Of a stretch of DNA of 64,000 bases, positions 25,187-63,353 are shown piece by piece (position 1 is the first letter of the stretch; each line of letters opens with the position of its first letter). The stretch lies in the IMG/VR virus record IMGVR_UViG_2770939491_000001; one strand, given 5' to 3'. The notes under the pieces are model-generated. The model did no database searches, was not told the origin of the DNA, and saw only the letters and a program-made list of their open reading frames with translations. The position numbers were made by a program, and so were the translations under genes. This DNA is from an uncultured virus (IMG/VR IMGVR_UViG_2770939491_000001). Its lineage: Duplodnaviria; Heunggongvirae; Uroviricota; Caudoviricetes.

Positions 25187-25331
25187 GAATGTGCCTCCTG
25201 GACACGTGAAAACACCCGTGGCACCAGGCCGAACGGGGTGTTGGAATGACGAAACCCCCAGGGCCAGATGGCCGGAACTGGGGGTTATTTGCACCCGCGC
25301 AAAATGGGCGGGAAGTCTTCAATTATTTGAG

Positions 25332-25416
25332 CGGAGATTTGAGGAATCGAACCCCTGCCCCGTGAGGGGCCGCGCCGCTTTCAAGGCGGTCCCGCCACCA
25401 TGGCGGTTAAATCTCC
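25332..25416 (-). tRNA. Non-canonical 8/4 allo-tRNA-like tRNA-Ser (anticodon UGA)
   Basis: 8-bp acceptor GGAGATTT/AAATCTCC; 4-bp T stem GGGG/CCTC; long D stem CCGCCA/TGGCGG; loop CTTGAAA; long V arm; G discriminator. Confidence 0.85.
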
Positions 25417-25417
25417 T

Positions 25418-25491
25418 TGGCTGGCCTGCCAGGATTCGAACCTGAACCTTCTGAACCAGAGTCAGACGTGCTGCCGTTGCACTACAGGCCG
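25418..25491 (-). tRNA. tRNA-Gln(CUG)
   Basis: Cloverleaf with TCTGA-ctCTGgt-TCAGA, TTCGAAT T loop, encoded CCA. Confidence 0.92.
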
Positions 25492-25492
25492 G

Positions 25493-25566
25493 TGGCAGGC
25501 TCGCCAGGATTCAAACCTGAACGCCCGGAGCCAAAATCCGGAATGCTGTCGTTACATCACGAGCCT
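25493..25566 (-). tRNA. tRNA-Gln(UUG)
   Basis: CCGGA-ttTTGgc-TCCGG; acceptor AGGCTCG/CGAGCCT; encoded CCA; variant T loop TTTGAAT. Confidence 0.88.
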
Positions 25567-37285: not shown

Positions 37286-37523
37286 CAGGGGCCTTCCGGG
37301 GTCTCGCACACGGGGTCGTGACACATGCAGCGCAAACCGTCGATGACGCAGCCCAGATTCACGTCGGCGTCGTCTTCGTGGCCGTGTTCGTCGCGCCAGG
37401 CGGCGGTTTCGCGTTTCTCGCGTTGACGGGCGGATCCGTGGGTGGGCGGATGGCAGCAGCCGATCCCCACGGGCGGGCGGGCGGACGGCGTCCACGTCTC
37501 GACGACGCAACTTTCCGTCCTAG

Positions 37524-37597
37524 ATGCGGTGGCCGGACTCGAACCGGCGGCCTCTGGGTTATGAGCCCAGCGTGCTACCAACTGCAACCACACCGCA
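37524..37597 (-). tRNA. tRNA-Met(CAU), initiator-like anticodon stem
   Basis: CTGGG-ctCATaa-CCCAG; GCCGG-TTCGAGT-CCGGC; acceptor TGCGGTG/CACCGCA; no encoded CCA. Confidence 0.88.
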
Positions 37598-37603
37598 TTG
37601 ACG

Positions 37604-37685
37604 TGCGCGAGGTGAGAGTCGAACTCACAAGACCGAAGCCGCTGGAACCTAAATCCAGTGCGTATACCAGTTTCGCCACTCGCGC
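37604..37685 (-). tRNA. tRNA-Leu(UAG)
   Basis: CTGGA-ttTAGgt-TCCAG; long variable arm; acceptor GCGCGAG/CTCGCGC. Confidence 0.92.
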
Positions 37686-37725
37686 GAAAACCAGCCCGTA
37701 CCCGAAAGGGCGGGCTGATCGATTG

Positions 37726-37799
37726 CCAGGACGGGGAGAATCGAACTCCCGAAACAGCGGTTTTGGAGACCGCCTGGGCGACCAACAGCCCACGTCCCA
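37726..37799 (-). tRNA. tRNA-Trp(CCA)
   Basis: GCGGT-ctCCAaa-ACCGC; GGGAG-TTCGATT-CTCCC; weak acceptor top with two G-U pairs. Confidence 0.8.
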
Positions 37800-37800
37800 A

Positions 37801-38160
37801 TGCGGCAGGCGCCCTGCCGGGCGTTCTGCCATGTAGTCGCCCGCCGAAGCGTACTGGGGCTTTCGCCCTGCTCCGCGCATCCTGTGCGCGGCAATTCCCG
37901 TGTCCTCAGGAGGAGGCCGAAGCCCGCGAGGCCCGAGGCGAAGTTAGTGGGTGGGGAGTTGCCTAGACTCCGACCGGGGCACGGACCGTAAGGATTAGTA
38001 CCCGGTGCTGCGATTTGCCCGCTGAGGCATCGGTTTCCGGCAGCTACGCCTTCCCTCAGGCACTTGCCCGTCAGGTTGCCGACATCGCACACATTCGCGG
38101 CCCGATCGCGCGGTAGCCGCTCACTCTGTCACCACCAGCGTCGGCCGCTAAACCGACGCT
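37801..38160 (-). ncRNA. Large structured RNA between tRNAs, candidate GOLLD-like
   Basis: Many hairpins (GGGC-GAAA-GCCC, GGC-TTCG-GCC, CCGCGCA/TGCGCGG, AGCGTCGG/CCGACGCT) and long-range pairs CTGAGG/CCTCAG and TGCGAT/ATCGCA; no credible ORF. Confidence 0.6.
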
Positions 38161-38163
38161 TTG

Positions 38164-38237
38164 TGCCCTCCGCTGGGGTCGAACCAGCAACATCCGGGGT
38201 TTGAATCCGGCACCTCTGCCAATTGGGTCAGAAGGGC
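38164..38237 (-). tRNA. tRNA-Leu(CAA) with short variable loop
   Basis: Acceptor GCCCTTC/GGAGGGC; loop ttCAAac; GCTGG-TTCGACC-CCAGC; variable region only ATGTT. Confidence 0.8.
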
Positions 38238-38240
38238 AAA

Positions 38241-38315
38241 GCCCCCGCGCCCTGGAATTGAACCAGGTTCCTCCCGCGTTTGGGCGGGCGCTCTAACGAT
38301 GAGCTAGCCGAGGAC
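38241..38315 (-). ncRNA. tRNA-like element or pseudo-tRNA
   Basis: D arm GCTC/GAGC; T arm CCTGG-TTCAATT-CCAGG; anticodon stem CCCGC/GCGGG with a 6-nt loop; irregular extended acceptor. Confidence 0.7.
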
Positions 38316-38399
38316 TGTTCAGTTGTCAGCGCCAGCCGGTGCATCTCGGCTGGGCAGGTTGTGTGCTACGCGATCGGGCTACCGATCCGGTTTTGGGCA

Positions 38400-38440
38400 C
38401 ACGAAATGCACGAGACTGAGAATAGCATCCGGCGGACACA
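38400..38440 (-). promoter_or_regulatory. Putative late promoter region upstream of the tRNA/ncRNA cluster
   Basis: TGcTATTCT extended -10-like hexamer on the minus strand in an AT-richer intergenic stretch. Confidence 0.4.
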
Positions 38441-38488
38441 GTTTCCGGCTTTCATTATCACAATTCGATAACATTCGCCGACGCCTAT

Positions 38489-38773
38489 TCACGCCGCATC
38501 CCTCACACGCTCAGCAGGCTTACGCCGATGAATCGCCCTACCCGCACCATTCGGCCCATAGAACTCATCACGCGTGTACTGACCCGCAACAACCTCGGAA
38601 GCAGAATGACCGATATGCCAGCCGCCAAGGATATGCGGGCATTTGTACGCCTGGATATGCTCGCCCTTGAAACGCCGCTTCCCAGCGAGGCGCGCGTCCT
38701 TCCGAGACTGATACGCCTGCTTGTTGCAATACCGACACTGACCGAACGGGCGAGCATCCTGCGCACGACTCAT
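38489..38773 (-). CDS. Small basic zinc-finger-like protein
   Basis: CRYCNKQAY...AYKCPHILGGWHIGH. Confidence 0.7.
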   Translation of the reverse strand: MSRAQDARPFGQCRYCNKQAYQSRKDARLAGKRRFKGEHIQAYKCPHILGGWHIGHSASEVVAGQYTRDEFYGPNGAGRAIHRRKPAERVRDAA

Positions 38774-39384
38774 GCCGCGTCCTCGATCACATCCACACCG
38801 AGCGCACCCGCGATATTCGGAGGCGCCCAATGCGCAGGTTTGAGTATTTTGCCGTCCTCGCGGCGGATCACTTTGCCGTCGACCAGCTTCGACATGTTCG
38901 ACCGCTGCACCTCCGCCCACACGCGGTCCATCGGCAGGTGCAGCATGATCGCCAAACCGGCCAGCTGGTACATCGAGTGGTGCGTGGCGGCATCGACCTC
39001 GATTAGATTCTGGTCGACGATGGCTTTGCGGATACGTTCGTCTGCCCGCTCGAGCTCGTCACCGATGTAGGCCATTGTGTGTGTCGCATCGAAATCAGCC
39101 CAATGCGGGCCGTCGACGGCGGTCGGCAGCAGGTCGTGGATGTAAGTGCGGGCCAGGCCGAGCCGCAGCAGCAGGCCGGCGCGCACGTACAAGCTGTCGG
39201 CGATCGCGTCGGCCGCCTCGACTAGGTTGCGGGCCGCGAGCGCGAACAGGAGTTCGTCGCGTTCTTCCTCGATCAGTCGCACAGCGAGCGCGATCTCGTC
39301 GTCGGTCACCCAGCCCGGCGTCTCCCGCAGACGCACACCACAGGCGGCATTGAACTGTCGGACGTCGTTCCATAGGTCGCTCAT
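38770..39384 (-). CDS. MazG-like nucleotide pyrophosphohydrolase
   Basis: LIEEERDEL...EAADAIADSLYV; EVQRSNMSK...REDGKILKP. Confidence 0.88.
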   Translation of the reverse strand: MSDLWNDVRQFNAACGVRLRETPGWVTDDEIALAVRLIEEERDELLFALAARNLVEAADAIADSLYVRAGLLLRLGLARTYIHDLLPTAVDGPHWADFDATHTMAYIGDELERADERIRKAIVDQNLIEVDAATHHSMYQLAGLAIMLHLPMDRVWAEVQRSNMSKLVDGKVIRREDGKILKPAHWAPPNIAGALGVDVIEDAA

Positions 39385-45140: not shown

Positions 45141-45709
45141 TACGCGGCCACCCCATTCGTCAGCTGCAGGTACCGCTGGTCCGCGAAAGCGGCCCAATCC
45201 AGATGTGGATTGCGACGCTTGGCTGAATGGGCGATGTCGCATGCCCGACAGCTTCGCTTTCCCCGACGGGATAGCGCTGCAACGAGATTCGGCTCTACCA
45301 GCTCGTGCCCCCGCGGGCAGTGGGTCTTACGCGCCTCTTTGTGGGTGCCGTGCCCCACAGCGTCCTTCTGATTGTCAGAGACAGTGCCCCACGCCAAGTT
45401 GTCCACCACGTTGTTGCCCGGGTCGCCATCAAGGTGCCTGCAAACCGCGCCAGCAGGCGCTGGCCCGATGAAATGCGTAGCCACCAGTACGTGCACCTGG
45501 ACGGTCGTTGTGAGCCCGTCTCGCGACAGGCAAACGCGATGGTGCCCGTCTCGAACCACGTCTTCGCGCAGTATCCGGGATCGCACATGCCACTCTCCGG
45601 AGAAGTTCCCAACGTGCGAAACGATCCGATCCAACGACCGCACACGTCCCTTGTCCGAAACCTCGTACAACCGCTCCCACCCGACGACCGGGCGCCACTC
45701 CTCGCTCAC
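45140..45709 (-). CDS. NUMOD4-HNH homing endonuclease
   Basis: EEWRPVVGWERLYEVSDKGRVRS; CRHLDGDPGNNVVDNL; THCPRGH...CRAC. Confidence 0.92.
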   Translation of the reverse strand: MSEEWRPVVGWERLYEVSDKGRVRSLDRIVSHVGNFSGEWHVRSRILREDVVRDGHHRVCLSRDGLTTTVQVHVLVATHFIGPAPAGAVCRHLDGDPGNNVVDNLAWGTVSDNQKDAVGHGTHKEARKTHCPRGHELVEPNLVAALSRRGKRSCRACDIAHSAKRRNPHLDWAAFADQRYLQLTNGVAA

Positions 45710-46971
45710 GCCGCGTCCCCCAACGACTCCAGGTCGACGACGCCCTTGTCGTTCTGCTTCGTTTCGAAGGCGTAGAACGCGGGAGACTTCGCCTTGGCGA
45801 AGTAGGGCACGATGCCCTCGACACGTAGGACTACGCCCTCGTCCACGGTCTTGCCAGGATCGAGGGGCAGTGCTTGCCGGTAGCCCTCGTCGTGGAACCG
45901 CTTGTCGAGCCAGTCCTCGGCGACGAAATCAGCGTGCAGACCCGACCACAACTCGGGCACGTGCATCAGGTCGCGGTCACGGCAGAATTCCTTCACCGCA
46001 TCCCACGACAGGTCAACAGAGATGCCCTGCTCATTGACCACCGCGACGCGGTACACGAGCAGTTCGGCGTGGCCGACCGGCATCCCATAGGTGTAACCAG
46101 CTTGCAGGGCTTTGCCGTTGGGCTCCCAGCCTACGAGCTCGCCATACACGATGTAGTTCTTCGGCAGGAGACCGTCGAGCTGCTTACCGTAGTGCGTCCA
46201 CACGTCGTTGTCGTAGAAATGCTGCTGGTCAGGGTTGTTCGCGTCCTTCACGACCCGACGAGAGGCGTAGACGTAGTCGAATTCGGTGAGCTGAACATTG
46301 ACGCCGAGTTTGCGGCCGATCCGTTCGAGCCAGGTCAGCTTCCGTGCGACCAGCGTGTGGCCGACACGGATTGAGGTGCCGTGCACCTTCTGGCTTGCCA
46401 CGATGCGGGTGTCGGCGGGGATCTGCCGCTCTACACGGAAGTACTGATCCGTCGAAACATGCTCCGGGAGGTAACGCTGGTCGACGCGGGTGAACGTCTT
46501 CCGCTTGTTCTTCTCCACGAGCGGTTGGGTGGCCTTGCTCGCCACCTCGTACTTGCGGCAGATTTCGTGCCCGTTCAGCTCGTCGAACGTGTCTCCGGGG
46601 GTGAGTTTGGTGATGTCGAAGCCGGTGTGCGCCAACGACTCGAGCGGCATGAACAGCGCGTCGGACCGGTGGCCACGGAGCTTGATCGCTCGCACGCGGC
46701 GGGTCTTCTCCAAGTACCCCTTCTCAGCGGGGTCCGCATTCAGCTCCGGCTCGCGGTGCAAGTTGTTCGCGTGCGCAAACTCCTCGGACAGCTGGGTTTC
46801 GGCTGTGAACACGATGCCGACATCACCGGGGGCCCGATCCTTGCCGACGATCGCTTGAAAACCGAGGACCGGGGCGCCGGCGATGTTGTCGCAACCGTCG
46901 AGCGCGTTCACTGCGGTCAGACGGACGACAACGGCAGCGTAGTTGGGGTTTTTCGGGGTAGTGAGGGCCAT
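45706..46971 (-). CDS. RNA ligase (Rnl2-like with N-terminal OB-like domain)
   Basis: Motif I QKVHGTS, VYGELVG, EGVVLR, AKAKS; N-terminal RVRAIKLRGHRS. Confidence 0.88.
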   Translation of the reverse strand: MALTTPKNPNYAAVVVRLTAVNALDGCDNIAGAPVLGFQAIVGKDRAPGDVGIVFTAETQLSEEFAHANNLHREPELNADPAEKGYLEKTRRVRAIKLRGHRSDALFMPLESLAHTGFDITKLTPGDTFDELNGHEICRKYEVASKATQPLVEKNKRKTFTRVDQRYLPEHVSTDQYFRVERQIPADTRIVASQKVHGTSIRVGHTLVARKLTWLERIGRKLGVNVQLTEFDYVYASRRVVKDANNPDQQHFYDNDVWTHYGKQLDGLLPKNYIVYGELVGWEPNGKALQAGYTYGMPVGHAELLVYRVAVVNEQGISVDLSWDAVKEFCRDRDLMHVPELWSGLHADFVAEDWLDKRFHDEGYRQALPLDPGKTVDEGVVLRVEGIVPYFAKAKSPAFYAFETKQNDKGVVDLESLGDAA

Positions 46972-46974
46972 ACG

Positions 46975-47017
46975 TGTACTGTACGCCATACTTTACGAAA
47001 GTACAGCATACTTTCAC
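46975..47017. promoter_or_regulatory. Tandem operator-like palindromes upstream of the RNA ligase
   Basis: TGTACTGTA-cgcca-TACTTTACG and ACGAAAGTA-cagca-TACTTTCAC; 15 bp identical (inverted) to 1738-1752. Confidence 0.7.
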
Positions 47018-47035
47018 TGCTTAACCGCTCAGCTT

Positions 47036-47797
47036 TCAGCCCGGTTCACGCAGCGCCGCCAGGTCCGTGACCATCACATTCTCGCTCATCGGCCGACCGT
47101 CCATGTCGAGGATGTGCACCTCGGTCCGGTAGTCGCGGCCGACCAGGGGCGCGTCGAGGCGGCAGTGGTAGTGGCCCGCGAATAGGCACTTCGGCCGGAC
47201 CTCGTCGACGACACGGCGCAGCAGTTCCCGGTGCCGTTGCGCGGCAGCGATCTCGGGCTCCGGGAACCCGTGCGGGTTGCCTTCGATGCACGGGATGCGG
47301 ACGCCGTCAGGTACGTCGTGACAGATCATGACGTCCGCTCGGCCACCGTTCGCCGCGGTGACTGCTTCGCCGATGGTGATGGTTTCGCGCGCCCACCATT
47401 CGCCGCGGGGCCGCCACGGCCGATCCACGGAGTGCGCGCCGCCGAGCGCAAGGAACGACACCCCCGACCAGGTCCACCTATACCCGCGGGGCAGGTAGAA
47501 GATGTTCGGGCGCATCGGGATCGCGGTTTGACCGTGTTCAGTGACTAGCGTGCCGAGTTTGTCGTGGTCGTCGTGGTTTCCGTCGGCGAAGCCCAGCAGC
47601 AGCCCGGTGTCCTCGAGCGCGCGCTGCACTCGGGCCATGAAGCTCGGCGCGAACTTATACGCGAAGTCGCCCACGTGCAGGATCGCCTGCGCGCCGTGCT
47701 CGGCCGCATACCGAATCGCCCGATCGGCATGGAAGCTGTTGCCGTGCCAATCGCCGGCGACCGCGACGCGCTGGGGATTGACGGATTCCCAGATCAC
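47036..47797 (-). CDS. Calcineurin-like metallophosphoesterase
   Basis: GDWHG, HVGDF, DGNHD, GGAHSVD, ICHD and GHYH motifs. Confidence 0.92.
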   Translation of the reverse strand: MIWESVNPQRVAVAGDWHGNSFHADRAIRYAAEHGAQAILHVGDFAYKFAPSFMARVQRALEDTGLLLGFADGNHDDHDKLGTLVTEHGQTAIPMRPNIFYLPRGYRWTWSGVSFLALGGAHSVDRPWRPRGEWWARETITIGEAVTAANGGRADVMICHDVPDGVRIPCIEGNPHGFPEPEIAAAQRHRELLRRVVDEVRPKCLFAGHYHCRLDAPLVGRDYRTEVHILDMDGRPMSENVMVTDLAALREPG

Positions 47798-47963
47798 GTG
47801 AGCTGTCCTTCGATTTCGCTACGACGATACAAGCCAGGAATGGAGTCTCCCTCTGCGAAATCGAAGAGAACTCCCACCGTGTCGCCTGAGACGTAAGCAA
47901 CTGTGGCCGCACGCTGCTGGCTGCTGTACGGAACCATGACCTTGTCGCCGGGTTTCATCACGA

Positions 47964-48152
47964 TCACCGCCGCCCTCCCCCGGCCATGGCGGCGATCATC
48001 ATCTCCACCAACCGCATGGCCTGGGCTTCGGTGAACCCGACGCCAGTGAGCGCGGTGTACTGGCCGTACACGGCCGCTGCCACTTGCCGAGCGTCCGAAG
48101 ACGGCTCGACAGGTGGGCCGCCGGTGAAGTCGGGGATACTCTCGAAGTTCAT
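47964..48152 (-). CDS. Small hypothetical protein
   Basis: YTALTGVGFTEAQAMRLV motif. Confidence 0.65.
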   Translation of the reverse strand: MNFESIPDFTGGPPVEPSSDARQVAAAVYGQYTALTGVGFTEAQAMRLVEMMIAAMAGGGRR

Positions 48153-48493
48153 GCGGCGCGGTCGATCGTGAAGTTGCCGATGTCGCGTGCCTTCTGGATG
48201 AGGGCGCCGATATCACCGAGGTCGCATGACGGATTGGACGCTGCCGCGAATCGCTTGTTCAGGTGTGTGATCAGCACCTGTGGTGTCGTGATTTCGGTCA
48301 GGTCACCGATCGCGGTGTCCTCGAACGGGCTTGGGCAGGAGCAACCGGCATCGTCGGCCATGTACAAGCGATGGGTGGTGTTGTTCTGCCAGACGACCGT
48401 GTAGTTGAAGCAGTAGTTGCCGTCGGAGAAGTCGAGCTCACCGACGATGCTGAGCCCGGACTTTTCGGGCGAGAAGTAGATGTTCGCACGCAT
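48149..48493 (-). CDS. Hypothetical protein
   Basis: YCFNYTVVW...DDAGCSCPSPFED. Confidence 0.7.
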   Translation of the reverse strand: MRANIYFSPEKSGLSIVGELDFSDGNYCFNYTVVWQNNTTHRLYMADDAGCSCPSPFEDTAIGDLTEITTPQVLITHLNKRFAAASNPSCDLGDIGALIQKARDIGNFTIDRAA

Positions 48494-48497
48494 TGGT

Positions 48498-49139
48498 TTA
48501 CTCCAGAACTCCGTCGGGGGTTGGTGCACCGATTAGTTGGCCCAGCATCCGGTAGTACTCAGGCGCCCAATGCATCCCGCATGCGAGGCACTCGGCGCTC
48601 GACAGGTTCGCGCGTAGAGCATACTGGCTCACCGTTTCTCCGGCACTGTCCTGCCCCGACACGATGGTTTCCCCGCACGACGGGCACGGCGCCCGCAGTT
48701 CCCACACGTGTTCGTCGTCGAGGAGTCGGCGGGCTCGCACCGCCCAGGTGTCGATGTCGCGGGCGAGCCTGCGCACGTACCCGACTTCTTCGGGCGCCCA
48801 GGCGTTGTCGGCGAGCGCGTACAGTCGGCGCACCGTCAGCTCTCGACCGGGCACCGCGGCGGCACCGATCGACCACTCCCCTACCCGGCGGTCGATCAGC
48901 TCGAGCAACGACAAAGCGTCCGACCAACCGGGCGCCCGTGAACCAGGTTCGGGGCGTCGCGCGCCACCGCCGTCGGCTCGTTCCCCGTAGCTGGCTTCTC
49001 GCAGCTGGTCGTAGAGCGAGTCCACGGGGATCGGTACTTGGCGGCCGTCGCGTTCGACGTGTTCGACCTGCATGCCGACGAGTGCGTGGACGGCGTCGGA
49101 GAGTGCGGCGCGGGCGCCGGCGACTAGCTCGTCATTCAC
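48498..49139 (-). CDS. Phage protein with C-terminal zinc ribbon (possible regulator)
   Basis: SLYDQLREA...PGSRAP; CPSCG...CLACG..W. Confidence 0.75.
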   Translation of the reverse strand: MNDELVAGARAALSDAVHALVGMQVEHVERDGRQVPIPVDSLYDQLREASYGERADGGGARRPEPGSRAPGWSDALSLLELIDRRVGEWSIGAAAVPGRELTVRRLYALADNAWAPEEVGYVRRLARDIDTWAVRARRLLDDEHVWELRAPCPSCGETIVSGQDSAGETVSQYALRANLSSAECLACGMHWAPEYYRMLGQLIGAPTPDGVLE

Positions 49140-49435
49140 GCTGTTCGTCGTCTCCTTCGCTGTAGGGCAGGATGCGGATCACCCCGTCGGCAGATGGGAC
49201 GAGCGGGTGAAATTTGGGCGTCGAGTAGTCACCCGGATTGACGGCCTCGGTGAGCGTTTCGATCGGTTCGCGGGAGCCGGTTGGGTCGGTCATTTCACGC
49301 TCCGCGGGTCGTGTTCGGTGTTCGCGGGGTCGGCGCCGCGGGTTCAGCATTCGCAGTCAGCCCAGTGCATTCCGCAGGTGACGCAGTTCTCGCCGTCCAA
49401 CCAGTCGAAGTCGTCGCCGACCTCATCACCAGTCA

Positions 49436-49744
49436 TCAGCGGCCGTATCCAAGGTTGTGGCGCCGTTCCTCCGCCTTACGGAGCGCTTCGTCAGTGTTCC
49501 CGGTGACGTACATGACGTTCGTGACCTTCGTCGACTGGGAGGCTTCGTACTTGGCTTTCCAGTCGGCGGCTTCTGCCTTGTACTGAAGTGCAACCAAGTC
49601 GGCGAATACCACCAGAATGGCGAACCCCGCGATCAGCCAACTGCCGGACAGCACATGCAGGAGCCCGATGGCAGGCCACACGATGAGGGATAGCTTTTCG
49701 AACCAGTGGGCGACCTGCCAGGCCCGGCGTACGTCGTTGATCAT
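49436..49744 (-). CDS. Membrane protein
   Basis: Two TM helices. Confidence 0.6.
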   Translation of the reverse strand: MINDVRRAWQVAHWFEKLSLIVWPAIGLLHVLSGSWLIAGFAILVVFADLVALQYKAEAADWKAKYEASQSTKVTNVMYVTGNTDEALRKAEERRHNLGYGR

Positions 49745-49926
49745 TTTTCGTTCTCCGTTTCGCCACCAAATAGGCGGGCGGGCGTGATGGCCCGGTTGTC
49801 GTGTTGGAGGGCGTGCGCTTTTTGGAGGGCCCGGATTTCGTCGTCAGCGAGGTGACGGCCGAGCCAGAGTTCGCAGCCGTGCGATACGCACGTGATTTTT
49901 TGCACGCCTTTGTCAATCGGTGTCAT
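49741..49926 (-). CDS. Small hypothetical protein
   Basis: 61 aa, coupled. Confidence 0.5.
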   Translation of the reverse strand: MTPIDKGVQKITCVSHGCELWLGRHLADDEIRALQKAHALQHDNRAITPARLFGGETENEK

Positions 49927-50179
49927 TGATACCCGCAGACGCTGCGACCACCGCGCCCAGAAATCGCGGCACCACGAACCACCAGGTCAACACCACCGTG
50001 ACGCCCGCGGCGACGCTAATTGCAGTCTTGACCATAGTCGTAATCGTCATCCTCGTATCCAAGCCACGGGAATTCCGGGTCAGTGCTCAACGGTTCAGTT
50101 TCGACGTATTCCGGGTCCATCGTTAGCCTCCTGTTCGGCCTATTCACAGAGTAAGACTCGCGTCAAACAGGGTTTACAC

Positions 50180-50217
50180 AAAAGAATGCCCGCCACCAGT
50201 AACAGCGGCGGGCATTC
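50180..50217 (-). terminator. Intrinsic terminator
   Basis: 11-bp stem gaatgcccgcc/ggcgggcattc followed by TTTT on the minus strand. Confidence 0.75.
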
Positions 50218-50225
50218 AGCGATTA

Positions 50226-50570
50226 TCAGGCGGCCTGATTCAGGATCTTCGTCGCTTCGGCACGCACCTCATCCCACCCGTGCGGCTTCTCCCCGTCACC
50301 GTAAAGGGCGTACAGGATGATATCGGTGCGCACGAACGCATCCACGATCTGTGCACGCCGCTGCTCCGCCTCACACAAAGCGCCGATCAGGTTGATCGTC
50401 TTATCGTCGGCGATCGCCCGCGCCTGCCAGGACCGGCGCGACATCCACACCCGCCGCAGCAGCGACGACAGCTCGTTCGTGGCGTGCCGACGGCCGTGCC
50501 GCTCACCGAAAATCACCGCGTTGTACAGGCGCGCCTGATACGGCGTAATCACTTCATCCATGTCAGACAT
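50226..50570 (-). CDS. Hypothetical protein
   Basis: 114 aa, ends just before the terminator. Confidence 0.6.
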   Translation of the reverse strand: MSDMDEVITPYQARLYNAVIFGERHGRRHATNELSSLLRRVWMSRRSWQARAIADDKTINLIGALCEAEQRRAQIVDAFVRTDIILYALYGDGEKPHGWDEVRAEATKILNQAA

Positions 50571-51414
50571 TGCAGCCTCCGATCAGCCCGTTCTGCTCCC
50601 ACCACGACACGTAGGTGTCGGTGAGCCAACGGCCGATCTCGGCGTGGTTGGGCTGTGGTGGCAAGTCGGCGGATTCGGCAAGTTGGTTCAGCTGGTCAAG
50701 GAGGTCTGCGGCCCGGGCGAGGGCTTCGTCCTTGGTGTGTTCGCCGCGGCGCAGCTCCTGCAGCCAGGTGCGGTCTGGTTCCGGGATCGGCAGCGTGACG
50801 CGGCCCGTGGTCAGGAGCTCCACGCCCTGCAGGCCGAGGCGCACCATGTGATAAGCGAACTTGGTGTCGAACCCGTACACGTCCACCAGCTCCGGCCGGT
50901 TGGTGTGCTTCTTCGACTTCACACCGAGCAGCTGGTCACGCTGGCTGATGAGGTACCCACCGAACCGCTGGGCAACCTGCCGCGACAGCCACCGTTCGGG
51001 GTTCGCTTGGATATCGCGGCCGATGTCGGTCTGGATGACGATCTCGGACGCGGGGATGAACGCTAGGAGGAGCACGGTCGGGTTGCCCTGCGCTGCAAGG
51101 GCGGACCACTTCCGCAGCGAGTACACCAACAGATCGAGGTCGCCGGCACCGGATCGAACACCTTCGGCTTGGGACCGGTAGATGTACTGCTCGAACAGCA
51201 CTTTGCCGTTGTTGGTTACCGGGATCGACGAAACGGGCGACTCGATGCAGACGCCCATTTCGTCGCGGTCGTCGTTGCCGGTGGTGACGCCGTGGAGCCC
51301 GGAGCCGACCTGGCCGAGGAGCACGGTGTTTCGGCGGGCGATCGCGGCGTGACGATCCGTGCCGTGCGGGTTGTCATTGGCACTGTTGTCGGGCCACTGG
51401 TAGGTGGTGGTCAT
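50563..51414 (-). CDS. Pol-beta-superfamily nucleotidyltransferase (RlaP-like)
   Basis: VGSGLHG...DDRDEMGV, YSLRKW, GNPT, RPELVDVYGFDTKFAYHMVRL. Confidence 0.85.
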   Translation of the reverse strand: MTTTYQWPDNSANDNPHGTDRHAAIARRNTVLLGQVGSGLHGVTTGNDDRDEMGVCIESPVSSIPVTNNGKVLFEQYIYRSQAEGVRSGAGDLDLLVYSLRKWSALAAQGNPTVLLLAFIPASEIVIQTDIGRDIQANPERWLSRQVAQRFGGYLISQRDQLLGVKSKKHTNRPELVDVYGFDTKFAYHMVRLGLQGVELLTTGRVTLPIPEPDRTWLQELRRGEHTKDEALARAADLLDQLNQLAESADLPPQPNHAEIGRWLTDTYVSWWEQNGLIGGCNV

Positions 51415-51665
51415 TCCCTGACCTTTCGTTGGATGACGTAGATGTGGTCGCCTTCGCAGGAGTAGCCGCCGTAGTACAGCCACGGGTCTGAGCCCTGTTT
51501 CATTGCGTCGGTGAGGGTTTCGTCGAGGTCTCCGAACCGGTCGGAGTTCTTGGCTTGGGTTCTCGCGTACTCGATGGCATCGGCACTGTTCTCAAACAGT
51601 TGGACGTCGACACCGAAATGCCGGTCCTGCCACACGACAACGGCGACGGTTCTCAGGTCGCTCAT
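51411..51665 (-). CDS. Hypothetical protein
   Basis: VVWQDRH...YSCEGD; coupled. Confidence 0.65.
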   Translation of the reverse strand: MSDLRTVAVVVWQDRHFGVDVQLFENSADAIEYARTQAKNSDRFGDLDETLTDAMKQGSDPWLYYGGYSCEGDHIYVIQRKVRE

Positions 51666-62623: not shown

Positions 62624-62789
62624 TGGGCTGGCGTAAACGGCGTTTCACGATCGAGGAGTTGAAGTTGGCATACGACGTCGGTGCGGCGCATCAGCTGATC
62701 CTGGAGCGGATCGGCGAGGACAACGAGACGACGTCGTTCGAGCGCCTGGTGGCGGACCTGCGGGGTTCGGTTCGAAAGGGAGCGGTGTG

Positions 62790-63353
62790 ATGGCAAAACC
62801 GTTGCTGTACCTCGATGTCGACGGCCCGCTCAACCCGTATGCCGCGAAACCTGAACGCCGCCCAACTGGGTACGACACTCACCGGTTGATGCCTGCGGCG
62901 TGGCTCGAGCGGCACCCGAACACACCACCGGACCGGGTGAAGCCGTTGCGGGTGTGGTTGAACCCGGCGCACGGTCCCGCCTTGCTCGCCCTGGCCGACG
63001 TGTTCGAGCTGGTGTGGGCGACGACGTGGGAGCACGAGGCGAACGAGTTCATCGGCCCGTTGATCGGGTTGCCGGAGTTGCCGGTGGTGGAGTGGGCGGA
63101 GGGCCGGCCGAAGGTGAATCGGGCTGGCGTCTACTGGAAGACACCCCAGCTGATCGAGCACGCGGCGGGTCGACCGTTTGCGTGGGTTGATGACGAGATC
63201 GGCCGATACGATCGGGAGTTCGTTTCGACCTATCACGGTCGTGCTGCGCTTCTGCACTACGTTGGCCCTGCGAAGGGGTTGCTCGACGAGGACTTCGCGG
63301 TGCTGCGGGAGTGGGGAAATGGTCAGACCGGCGTGGCAGGATCGGCGGCGTGA
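62790..63353 (+). CDS. HAD phosphatase of the Swiss-Army-Knife RNA-repair type
   Basis: LLYLDVDGPLNP, LVWATTW, WKT, FAWVDDE. Confidence 0.88.
   Translation: MAKPLLYLDVDGPLNPYAAKPERRPTGYDTHRLMPAAWLERHPNTPPDRVKPLRVWLNPAHGPALLALADVFELVWATTWEHEANEFIGPLIGLPELPVVEWAEGRPKVNRAGVYWKTPQLIEHAAGRPFAWVDDEIGRYDREFVSTYHGRAALLHYVGPAKGLLDEDFAVLREWGNGQTGVAGSAA

Follow-up and report, generated by a model that had tools for sequence, protein, structure and literature searches.

The tRNA array of a Nocardia phage carries the gene for a structured RNA of 213 nt, which belongs to a family that is absent from Rfam 15. The family has 26 distinct members, some of them in cultured mycobacteriophages, and shares a fold of twelve helices and a pseudoknot that is supported by covariation. 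On balance, we think that the gene encodes a real, discrete phage RNA of a new family that acts in trans; that its target is specifically related to tRNA is much less certain.

Our window is the whole 64,000 nt stretch of DNA that was analyzed. ARAGORN and Rfam both placed in this window a gap of 363 nt on the minus strand (37800-38162) between tRNA-Leu(CAA) and tRNA-Trp, in agreement with an earlier note on this DNA that had flagged a gap of ~360 nt. Because the flanking tRNAs lie on the minus strand, we read any RNA in the gap from the minus strand as well. The array and the gap contain the following features, listed in the direction of reading.

38243-38313, minus strand: first tRNA of the array, recognized by Rfam (tRNA model, 33.5 bits, E = 7.7e-5) and without an ARAGORN call.
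38163-38237, minus strand: tRNA-Leu(CAA)-like, 75 nt, directly upstream of the core RNA (ARAGORN; Rfam tRNA model, 45.3 bits).
37950-38162, minus strand: conserved core RNA, 213 nt (243.8 bits with our covariance model R1; single copy in its own genome).
37895-37949, minus strand: linker CACUAACUU, then a G+C-rich hairpin capped by a UUCG loop, a variable spacer with no covariation support.
37800-37884, minus strand: module C, a set of three hairpins (GAAA and UUCG loops) that ends at tRNA-Trp; both sides change in 6 of 22 pairs.
37725-37799, minus strand: tRNA-Trp(CCA) (ARAGORN, Rfam).
37603-37685, minus strand: tRNA-Leu(TAG) (ARAGORN, Rfam).
37523-37597, minus strand: tRNA-Met(CAT) (ARAGORN, Rfam).

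The anticodon loop of the first tRNA (38243-38313) appears to be AAA, which is unusual in bacteria. Bacterial leucine tRNAs are expected to have a long variable arm, and the 75 nt tRNA-Leu(CAA) of the window is without one. We also observed a second small tRNA cluster (Ser-TGA, Gln-CTG, and Gln-TTG) at 25331-25566 on the minus strand, among the head genes of the same phage; its Ser-TGA tRNA matched the Rfam tRNA-Sec model at 50.1 bits, probably owing to the long arm alone.

The array lies in a Nocardia genome, within a siphovirus-like (pro)phage. Positions 2770-44513 of the window form a single 41,744 nt contig of that 7.0 Mb genome, and an IMG/VR viral record carries the identical core. On the phage contig, PHROGs matches, all on the minus strand, include endolysin, minor tail, tape measure, tail chaperone, and major tail genes, together with tail terminator, head-tail adaptor, major head, portal, and large terminase genes. 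An adjoining contig, which is separate from the phage contig in the assembly, carries an RNA-repair-like gene set (window 45706-51483, minus strand) with genes for RNA ligase (PF09414), metallophosphoesterase, and the "RNA repair pathway" nucleotidyltransferase RlaP (PF10127). A further match, to a HAD "Swiss Army Knife RNA repair" domain at 62787-63353 on the plus strand, was weak and under the cut-off.

To delimit the conserved unit, we used the 363 nt as a BLAST query against one genome per species (267 Nocardia genomes). Matches were found in 22 genomes; 14 of these, including the genome of origin, spanned the first ~220 nt, and the other 8 had short 3′ pieces only. When the inter-tRNA gaps were aligned, a sharply conserved block of ~213 nt was followed by unalignable sequence. 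The conserved unit is only the 5′ 213 nt of the flagged 363 nt (38162 down to 37950). Where the earlier note saw a discrete unit of ~360 nt, a conserved RNA unit does exist, but it is 213 nt long and the 3′ ~150 nt is variable or more weakly supported. Single-base insertions and deletions separate the homologs, so the core is not coding.

We then built the covariance model R1 (215 positions, 50 pairs) from 15 cores. Together with pattern scans, R1 recovered the 26 distinct members from public collections, with scores from 247 down to 21.5 bits. The 14 members in Nocardia genomes scored 201-247 bits, and L031, L032, and L050 scored 210-218 bits. The remaining scores were 132.8 bits for L056, 128 for L069, 99.5 for L068, 83.8 for L080, 82.9 for L073, 54.8 for L066, 34.9 for L047 (in genome G311, from a sister genus of the same family, and also a UViG), 23.3 for L055 (Mycobacterium phage DyoEdafos), and 21.5 for L057 (Mycobacterium phage Bromden). 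The Mycobacterium phages Chaser, Aegeus, and Baudelaire were matched by BLAST. The carriers are Nocardia genomes, G311, five cluster-L mycobacteriophages, and several viral or metagenome contigs. R1 matched the genome of origin and G311 in an order-level sample (2 of 151 genomes) and the same two in a family-level sample (2 of 151); within the genus of G311 it also matched 2 of 151 genomes, the second weakly (18.7 bits). None of the five mycobacteriophages has an annotation under the match, and in DyoEdafos the RNA lies within a 347 nt unannotated gap between tRNA-Pro and tRNA-Trp. The sole match in a plasmid search was a Nocardia farcinica record of 2.66 Mb that is filed among plasmids, and the mycobacterial subtype had no match among plasmids. 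Two sets of candidates were discarded: a pattern match in a Gammaproteobacteria MAG was a chance match, and L062-L065, from eight metagenome pattern matches, were not significant with R1.

The fold of the core RNA runs in the order P1, GGUGG, UGACAGAGUG, P3, AAUGUG, central domain, P11, P12, and CCACC, and the window RNA shows all of these parts. Their positions are as follows (nt, numbering in the RNA).

38138-38159, minus strand: P1 hairpin, nt 4-25, with a UAGC-containing loop; 6 of 6 modeled pairs are changed on both sides in some sequence.
38122-38136, minus strand: putative P2 5′ strand (GGUGG) and junction UGACAGAGUG; 13 of 15 bases are invariant.
38097-38120, minus strand: P3 hairpin, nt 43-66 (stem 43-47 with 62-66); 5 of 5 pairs are changed on both sides and 100% of cells are paired.
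38090-38095, minus strand: AAUGUG junction; AAUGU is invariant and the last G is at least 90% conserved.
38009-38089, minus strand: central domain, P5 (nt 74-78 with 150-154) around P6, P7, P8, P9, and P10, with covariation.
37973-38006, minus strand: P11 hairpin, nt 157-190 (stem 157-162 with 185-190); 5 of 6 stem pairs covary.
37950-37971, minus strand: P12 hairpin, nt 192-208 (192-195 with 205-208), 4 of 4 pairs covarying, then the putative P2 3′ strand CCACC (nt 209-213).

Twelve helices are backed by compensatory changes, P2 being the one among them that hardly varies. In the central domain, covarying pairs account for 5/5 in P5, 4/5 in P6, 3/3 in P7, 4/5 in P8, 3/4 in P9, and 2/3 in P10. 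The closing helix P2 would pair nt 27-31 with nt 209-213 (GGUGG with CCACC), and here we observed one compensatory case and two U-U cases; because its pairs hardly vary, P2 is proposed rather than proven. Across 24 sequences, 25 of the 213 positions are invariant and cluster in the junction. Nearly all fall in GUGGUGACAGAG.G, in AAUGU, in the GG closing the P3 loop, and in the CC.C of the P2 3′ strand (C209, C210, and C212). RNA nt 28-39 and 41 are invariant in 24/24 sequences, and the junction segment UGACAGAG is likewise invariant. The hairpin loops of P1, P9, and P10 mostly contain UAGC.

The structure was drawn by hand and tested by pair counts. In a model-free MAFFT alignment of 15 sequences, 94.0% of cells were paired, compared with 38.5-47.5% in slid controls, and 17 of 51 pairs were changed on both sides, a count that 0 of 500 shuffles reached. 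In the model-based alignment of 24 sequences, with the pseudoknot included, the paired cells again amounted to 94.0% (36.8-47.0% in slid controls), and 44 of 56 pairs were changed on both sides (reached in 0 of 500 shuffles). A model-fitted alignment leans toward structure, and the kinship of the sequences inflates shuffle tests; both worries are answered by the unfitted alignment and the slid controls. Covariation among homologs, which the earlier note had named among its checks, is present at this level. Invariant G-U pairs (e.g., 15/15 at one pair) fixed the minus strand as the strand of the RNA. RNAalifold, run on the MAFFT alignment, put P1 and the 3′ end in the wrong place, and its structure was rejected.

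Folding energy did not distinguish the flagged stretch from shuffled sequence. The minimum free energy of the minus strand was -160.9 kcal/mol versus -160.3 kcal/mol for dinucleotide shuffles (z = -0.12), and the opposite strand gave z = 0.04. The hairpins with GAAA and UUCG tetraloops that the earlier note described are in the sequence, and the "dense hairpins" on which it relied are at chance for the G+C content. Hairpin density alone is no evidence here, because the DNA is 64% G+C.

A scan of all column pairs suggested that the loops of P3 and P11 contact each other. The strands of this contact are nt 56-60 (window 38103-38107), GAUCG, and nt 175-179 (window 37984-37988), CGGUC. At pair 56-179, 11 of the 24 sequences have G-C, 9 have A-U, 1 has another combination, and 3 have a gap. 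The pseudoknot is retained with at least 11 different 5-mers, and by eye the divergent members form it as GGACACG/CGUGUUC, GAACGC/GUGUUC, CAUUGG/CCGAUG, GUGACUG/CAGUCAC, or GUAGCCG/CGGCUAC. Also by eye, it is perfect in 25 of the 26 sequences, with one mismatch in L073. In a fixed register, the complement to the loop 5-mer was found in 23 of 26 cognate combinations, compared with 229 of 558 non-cognate and 1234 of 5048 shuffled ones. By energy, the loops did not differ significantly from shuffled ones (mean z = -0.15), and the cognate loops were just slightly better than the targets of other groups (Nocardia, B, and C groups). Short G+C-rich loops pair with something anywhere; the position-specific tests carry the pseudoknot. 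Two further candidate tertiary contacts, between the P1 and P12 loops and between U173 and G201, were inconsistent across subtypes and were rejected.

We next compared the RNA with known families. The earlier note had left two identities open, a minimal GOLLD RNA reduced to its 3′ domain or an unassigned RNA family, and it is the second that our data bear out, through homologs with covariation. At gathering score, Rfam 15 identified nothing but tRNAs in the window. With all 4227 families at E ≤ 10, positions 37300-38700 again gave nothing but tRNAs, with GOLLD, ROOL (RF03087), ribozymes, and the group I intron all absent, and 14 homolog loci gave nothing but tRNAs at E ≤ 0.1. Within 37800-38162, there was no ARAGORN call and no Rfam match at E ≤ 10 to tRNA or tmRNA. 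The GOLLD model (RF02032; 416 positions, gathering score 150 bits) had no match at E ≤ 1 in the genome of origin, and none in five carrier genomes (four other Nocardia and G311) or in DyoEdafos. As a positive control, the same model scored 216.4 bits on the GOLLD RNA of phage Bongo, whose neighbors are a tmRNA and tRNAs; reciprocally, R1 with filters off gave that locus no more than 4.7 bits (E = 0.096). When 151 sister-genus genomes were searched for GOLLD, no match was returned, but the controls gave none either, and the search carries no weight. By eye, no GOLLD consensus block was recognized in the core, and the three motifs that the earlier note had likened to GOLLD were not seen in the GOLLD consensus; two of the three lie in the variable 3′ part. 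The core family is not GOLLD.

GOLLD forms a homo-oligomeric cage (14-mer), and ROOL is a far larger RNA of about 580 nt. The core RNA resembles GOLLD in its setting, being encoded by phages or prophages within tRNA islands, actinobacterial ones included, and in that a tRNA can sit inside the RNA. It differs in size, as the 213 nt core is about half of the 416-position model and even the whole gap is 363 nt. Passages of PMC12286853 describe GOLLD and ROOL cages, tRNAs in the GOLLD linker, and many GOLLD members of >800 nt. For actinobacterial tRNA islands, GOLLD is mentioned in part of PMC9569102 (citing Morgado 2020), and passages of PMC9569102 and PMC5966550 state that mycobacterial tRNA arrays often hold a structured RNA of ~430 nt that was later named GOLLD. 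With ROOL, the core shares the phage tRNA-island niche (according to passages of PMC12286853) and a pseudoknotted fold; however, the scan with all families at E ≤ 10 gave no ROOL match.

With tRNA and its mimics (tmRNA, YrlA, and skipping-rope RNA), the likeness is that the core RNA occupies a tRNA slot. Its architecture may go further, in that P12 stacked on the 3′ strand of the closing helix would recall a T arm on an acceptor stem, and the two kissing hairpin loops would recall the D and T loops. The core nevertheless has no match to a tRNA, tmRNA, or YrlA model, is without a T-loop consensus, an anticodon arm, and an encoded CCA, and is three times the size of a tRNA. A full-text literature search found no description of the core RNA; the main tables of PMC10690425, which reports about 10,000 candidate viral RNAs from IMG/VR, were probably outside its coverage and may list it.

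At 25 of the 26 loci, we read the core as starting 0-5 nt past a tRNA or past a tRNA-like acceptor and T arm; only in L047 does it lie farther away, ~170 nt behind tRNA-Met. Nocardia-type loci show the order discriminator base, C, AAAGC. In the compact homologs L056 and L069, CCACC is followed after 4-5 nt by the next tRNA, so that the RNA there fills exactly one slot of the array. The upstream tRNAs vary across homologs (Leu, Ile, Ser, Ala, Tyr, Asn, and Pro), as do the downstream ones (Trp, Met, Ile, Ser, and Tyr). The tRNAs upstream of cores are often abnormal: five are without identity ("???") in ARAGORN, and by eye a short hairpin with a GAC triloop replaces the anticodon loop in several homologs. 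The loci noted for abnormal upstream tRNAs are window 38163-38237 (minus strand), L002, L050, L016, and L068. Counts of "tRNA genes" in such arrays thus include anticodon-less look-alikes and slots that are not tRNAs.

In one Nocardia genome (G016, locus L004), P10 is replaced by an 88 nt insert with a tRNA-Met (1642-1717), and the remainder of the RNA is intact at 201 bits, which makes P10 a peripheral element. Should this tRNA-Met be excised, the RNA would consist of two pieces joined by base pairing.

Other RNA motifs were seen near some of the homologs. The Rfam abiF motif (cut-off 37 bits) was matched in DyoEdafos (L055 2694-2730, 41.1 bits) and in Bromden (L057 2674-2710, 40.5 bits), in both cases inside the tRNA array between tRNA-Gly and tRNA-Lys. 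A partial match to the DUF3800-IV RNA (48.5 bits; cut-off 60.7) lies just upstream of the array in Nocardia genome G029 (L003 1333-1390).

The 3′ ~150 nt of the flagged stretch behaved differently from the core. Taken as a whole, it had 1 of 23 predicted pairs supported and an unfavorable covariation term. The linker that follows CCACC is semi-conserved. Its G+C-rich hairpin (RNA nt 224-268, window 37895-37940) was found alone by BLAST in 8 further Nocardia genomes, and five of the loci with the lone hairpin (among L018-L024) have no tRNA nearby; the hairpin may be a common terminator-like or repeat element. Module C is common to 6 loci and adjoins tRNA-Trp in most and tRNA-Met in one; it is a second conserved module, with more modest support than the core.

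No public RNA run is on record with the flagged stretch. Contigs of close relatives span the core in four "RNA-Seq" wastewater runs of one study, three of them marked as probably DNA and the fourth being RNA by a guess only. Neither a promoter nor a terminator turned up in a simple scan of 37300-38800. The RNA is probably released by tRNA processing, because a tRNA or an anticodon-less look-alike almost always lies immediately upstream of the core. According to passages of PMC10673834, more than half of the tRNAs of M. tuberculosis need enzymatic CCA addition; actinobacterial tRNAs are commonly without an encoded CCA, and the trailer cut would therefore fall where the core begins. Among the five RNA-bearing phage records, RNA ligase homologs occur in two and RlaP homologs in one. 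Pfam found no TROVE/Ro domain in the 36 window ORFs that were scanned, and we found no conserved partner gene and no obligatory protein partner among the carriers.

We propose that the core is the gene for a stand-alone structured non-coding phage RNA that takes one slot of the tRNA row. The RNA would be co-transcribed with the tRNAs, with its 5′ end freed by 3′ trimming of the upstream tRNA or look-alike and its 3′ side freed by the 5′ cut of the next tRNA. Its compact body would consist of the GGUGG/CCACC closing helix around a multi-helix junction, locked by the P3-P11 kissing pseudoknot, with the invariant junction (UGACAGAGUG ... AAUGUG) as the likely working site. Such an RNA would act in trans during infection. 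Our guess at its target is a protein or RNA of the tRNA or translation machinery, or a host defense that attacks tRNAs.

Within this proposal, binding to a factor that recognizes tRNA is favored, because the P2-P12 stack and the kissing loops recall the acceptor/T-arm stack and the elbow of tRNA. The RNA might then be a phage docking or decoy RNA, with the P2-P12 stack, the kissing-loop "elbow," and the invariant junction as the surfaces that bind a host tRNA-recognizing factor. By analogy of form this is possible but doubtful, and the candidates for the bound factor (an anticodon nuclease, another tRNA-directed defense, a processing enzyme, or the ribosome) are guesses.

Somewhat less likely again is that the core works only in cis, as a spacer of the tRNA operon that guides or times the cuts of RNase P, RNase Z, and RNase E or shields the tRNAs, and has no independent life. 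The core always abuts a tRNA (a tRNA or look-alike in 25 of 26 loci), the neighboring hairpin B and module C resemble such elements, and the upstream look-alikes without an anticodon loop might be mere processing handles. However, a 12-helix pseudoknotted fold with 25 invariant bases goes far beyond the needs of spacing, and this fold is kept from Nocardia prophages to mycobacteriophages though the flanking tRNAs differ. Moreover, most tRNAs in the same arrays are spaced 1-6 nt apart without such an RNA between them.

We consider it unlikely, and a little more so than the spacer, that the RNA works as GOLLD and ROOL do, with copies of itself assembling into an RNA-only multimer or cage of much smaller form. 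That idea is an analogy that draws on the shared niche (phage or prophage, tRNA island) and on the tRNA within a peripheral helix in G016, as passages of PMC12286853 describe for the GOLLD linker. UAGC recurs in several hairpin loops, and 7 Nocardia-type homologs have the self-complementary P1 loop CUAGCUAG, through which two copies could kiss. Conservation does not extend to this palindrome, however, as the P1 loop of the window RNA is UUUAGCGG; neither in sequence nor by model does the RNA resemble GOLLD or ROOL, and 213 nt is only about half the length of the GOLLD model.

More improbable still is a ribozyme that uses the invariant junction as an active site, either to cleave itself or to act on tRNA precursors. 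Catalytic cores typically have invariant unpaired bases in a junction that a pseudoknot holds in place, but the case is a purely anatomical one; no Rfam ribozyme matched at E ≤ 10, and no conserved cleavage-site signature was recognizable. That the stretch is mere debris, from decayed tRNA genes or a chance G+C-rich gap, is refuted by the covariation counts and merits next to no credence: it is about as long as three tRNA slots, its folding energy is at chance, and some tRNAs of the array are degenerate, but the core contains no tRNA-model match at E ≤ 10, 44 of 56 pairs are compensatory, the pseudoknot covaries, and the RNA is conserved across genera and in free-living phages.

We thus return to a stand-alone RNA that probably acts in trans, and to what it would mean. 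Phage tRNA islands repeatedly yield large folded RNAs (GOLLD, ROOL), whose roles are still unknown over fifteen years after the first account of GOLLD. Were the core RNA a decoy, it would be an RNA-based counter-defense that travels with tRNA genes; were it instead to assemble with itself as GOLLD and ROOL do, it would be the smallest member of that functional class. It is small enough for probing, crystallography, and cryo-EM, and its invariant core is a clear target for mutation. It differs from most such orphans in that cultured, tractable M. smegmatis phages (DyoEdafos, Bromden, and Chaser) have it, and because these phages carry it, the role of structured RNAs in phage tRNA arrays is directly testable.
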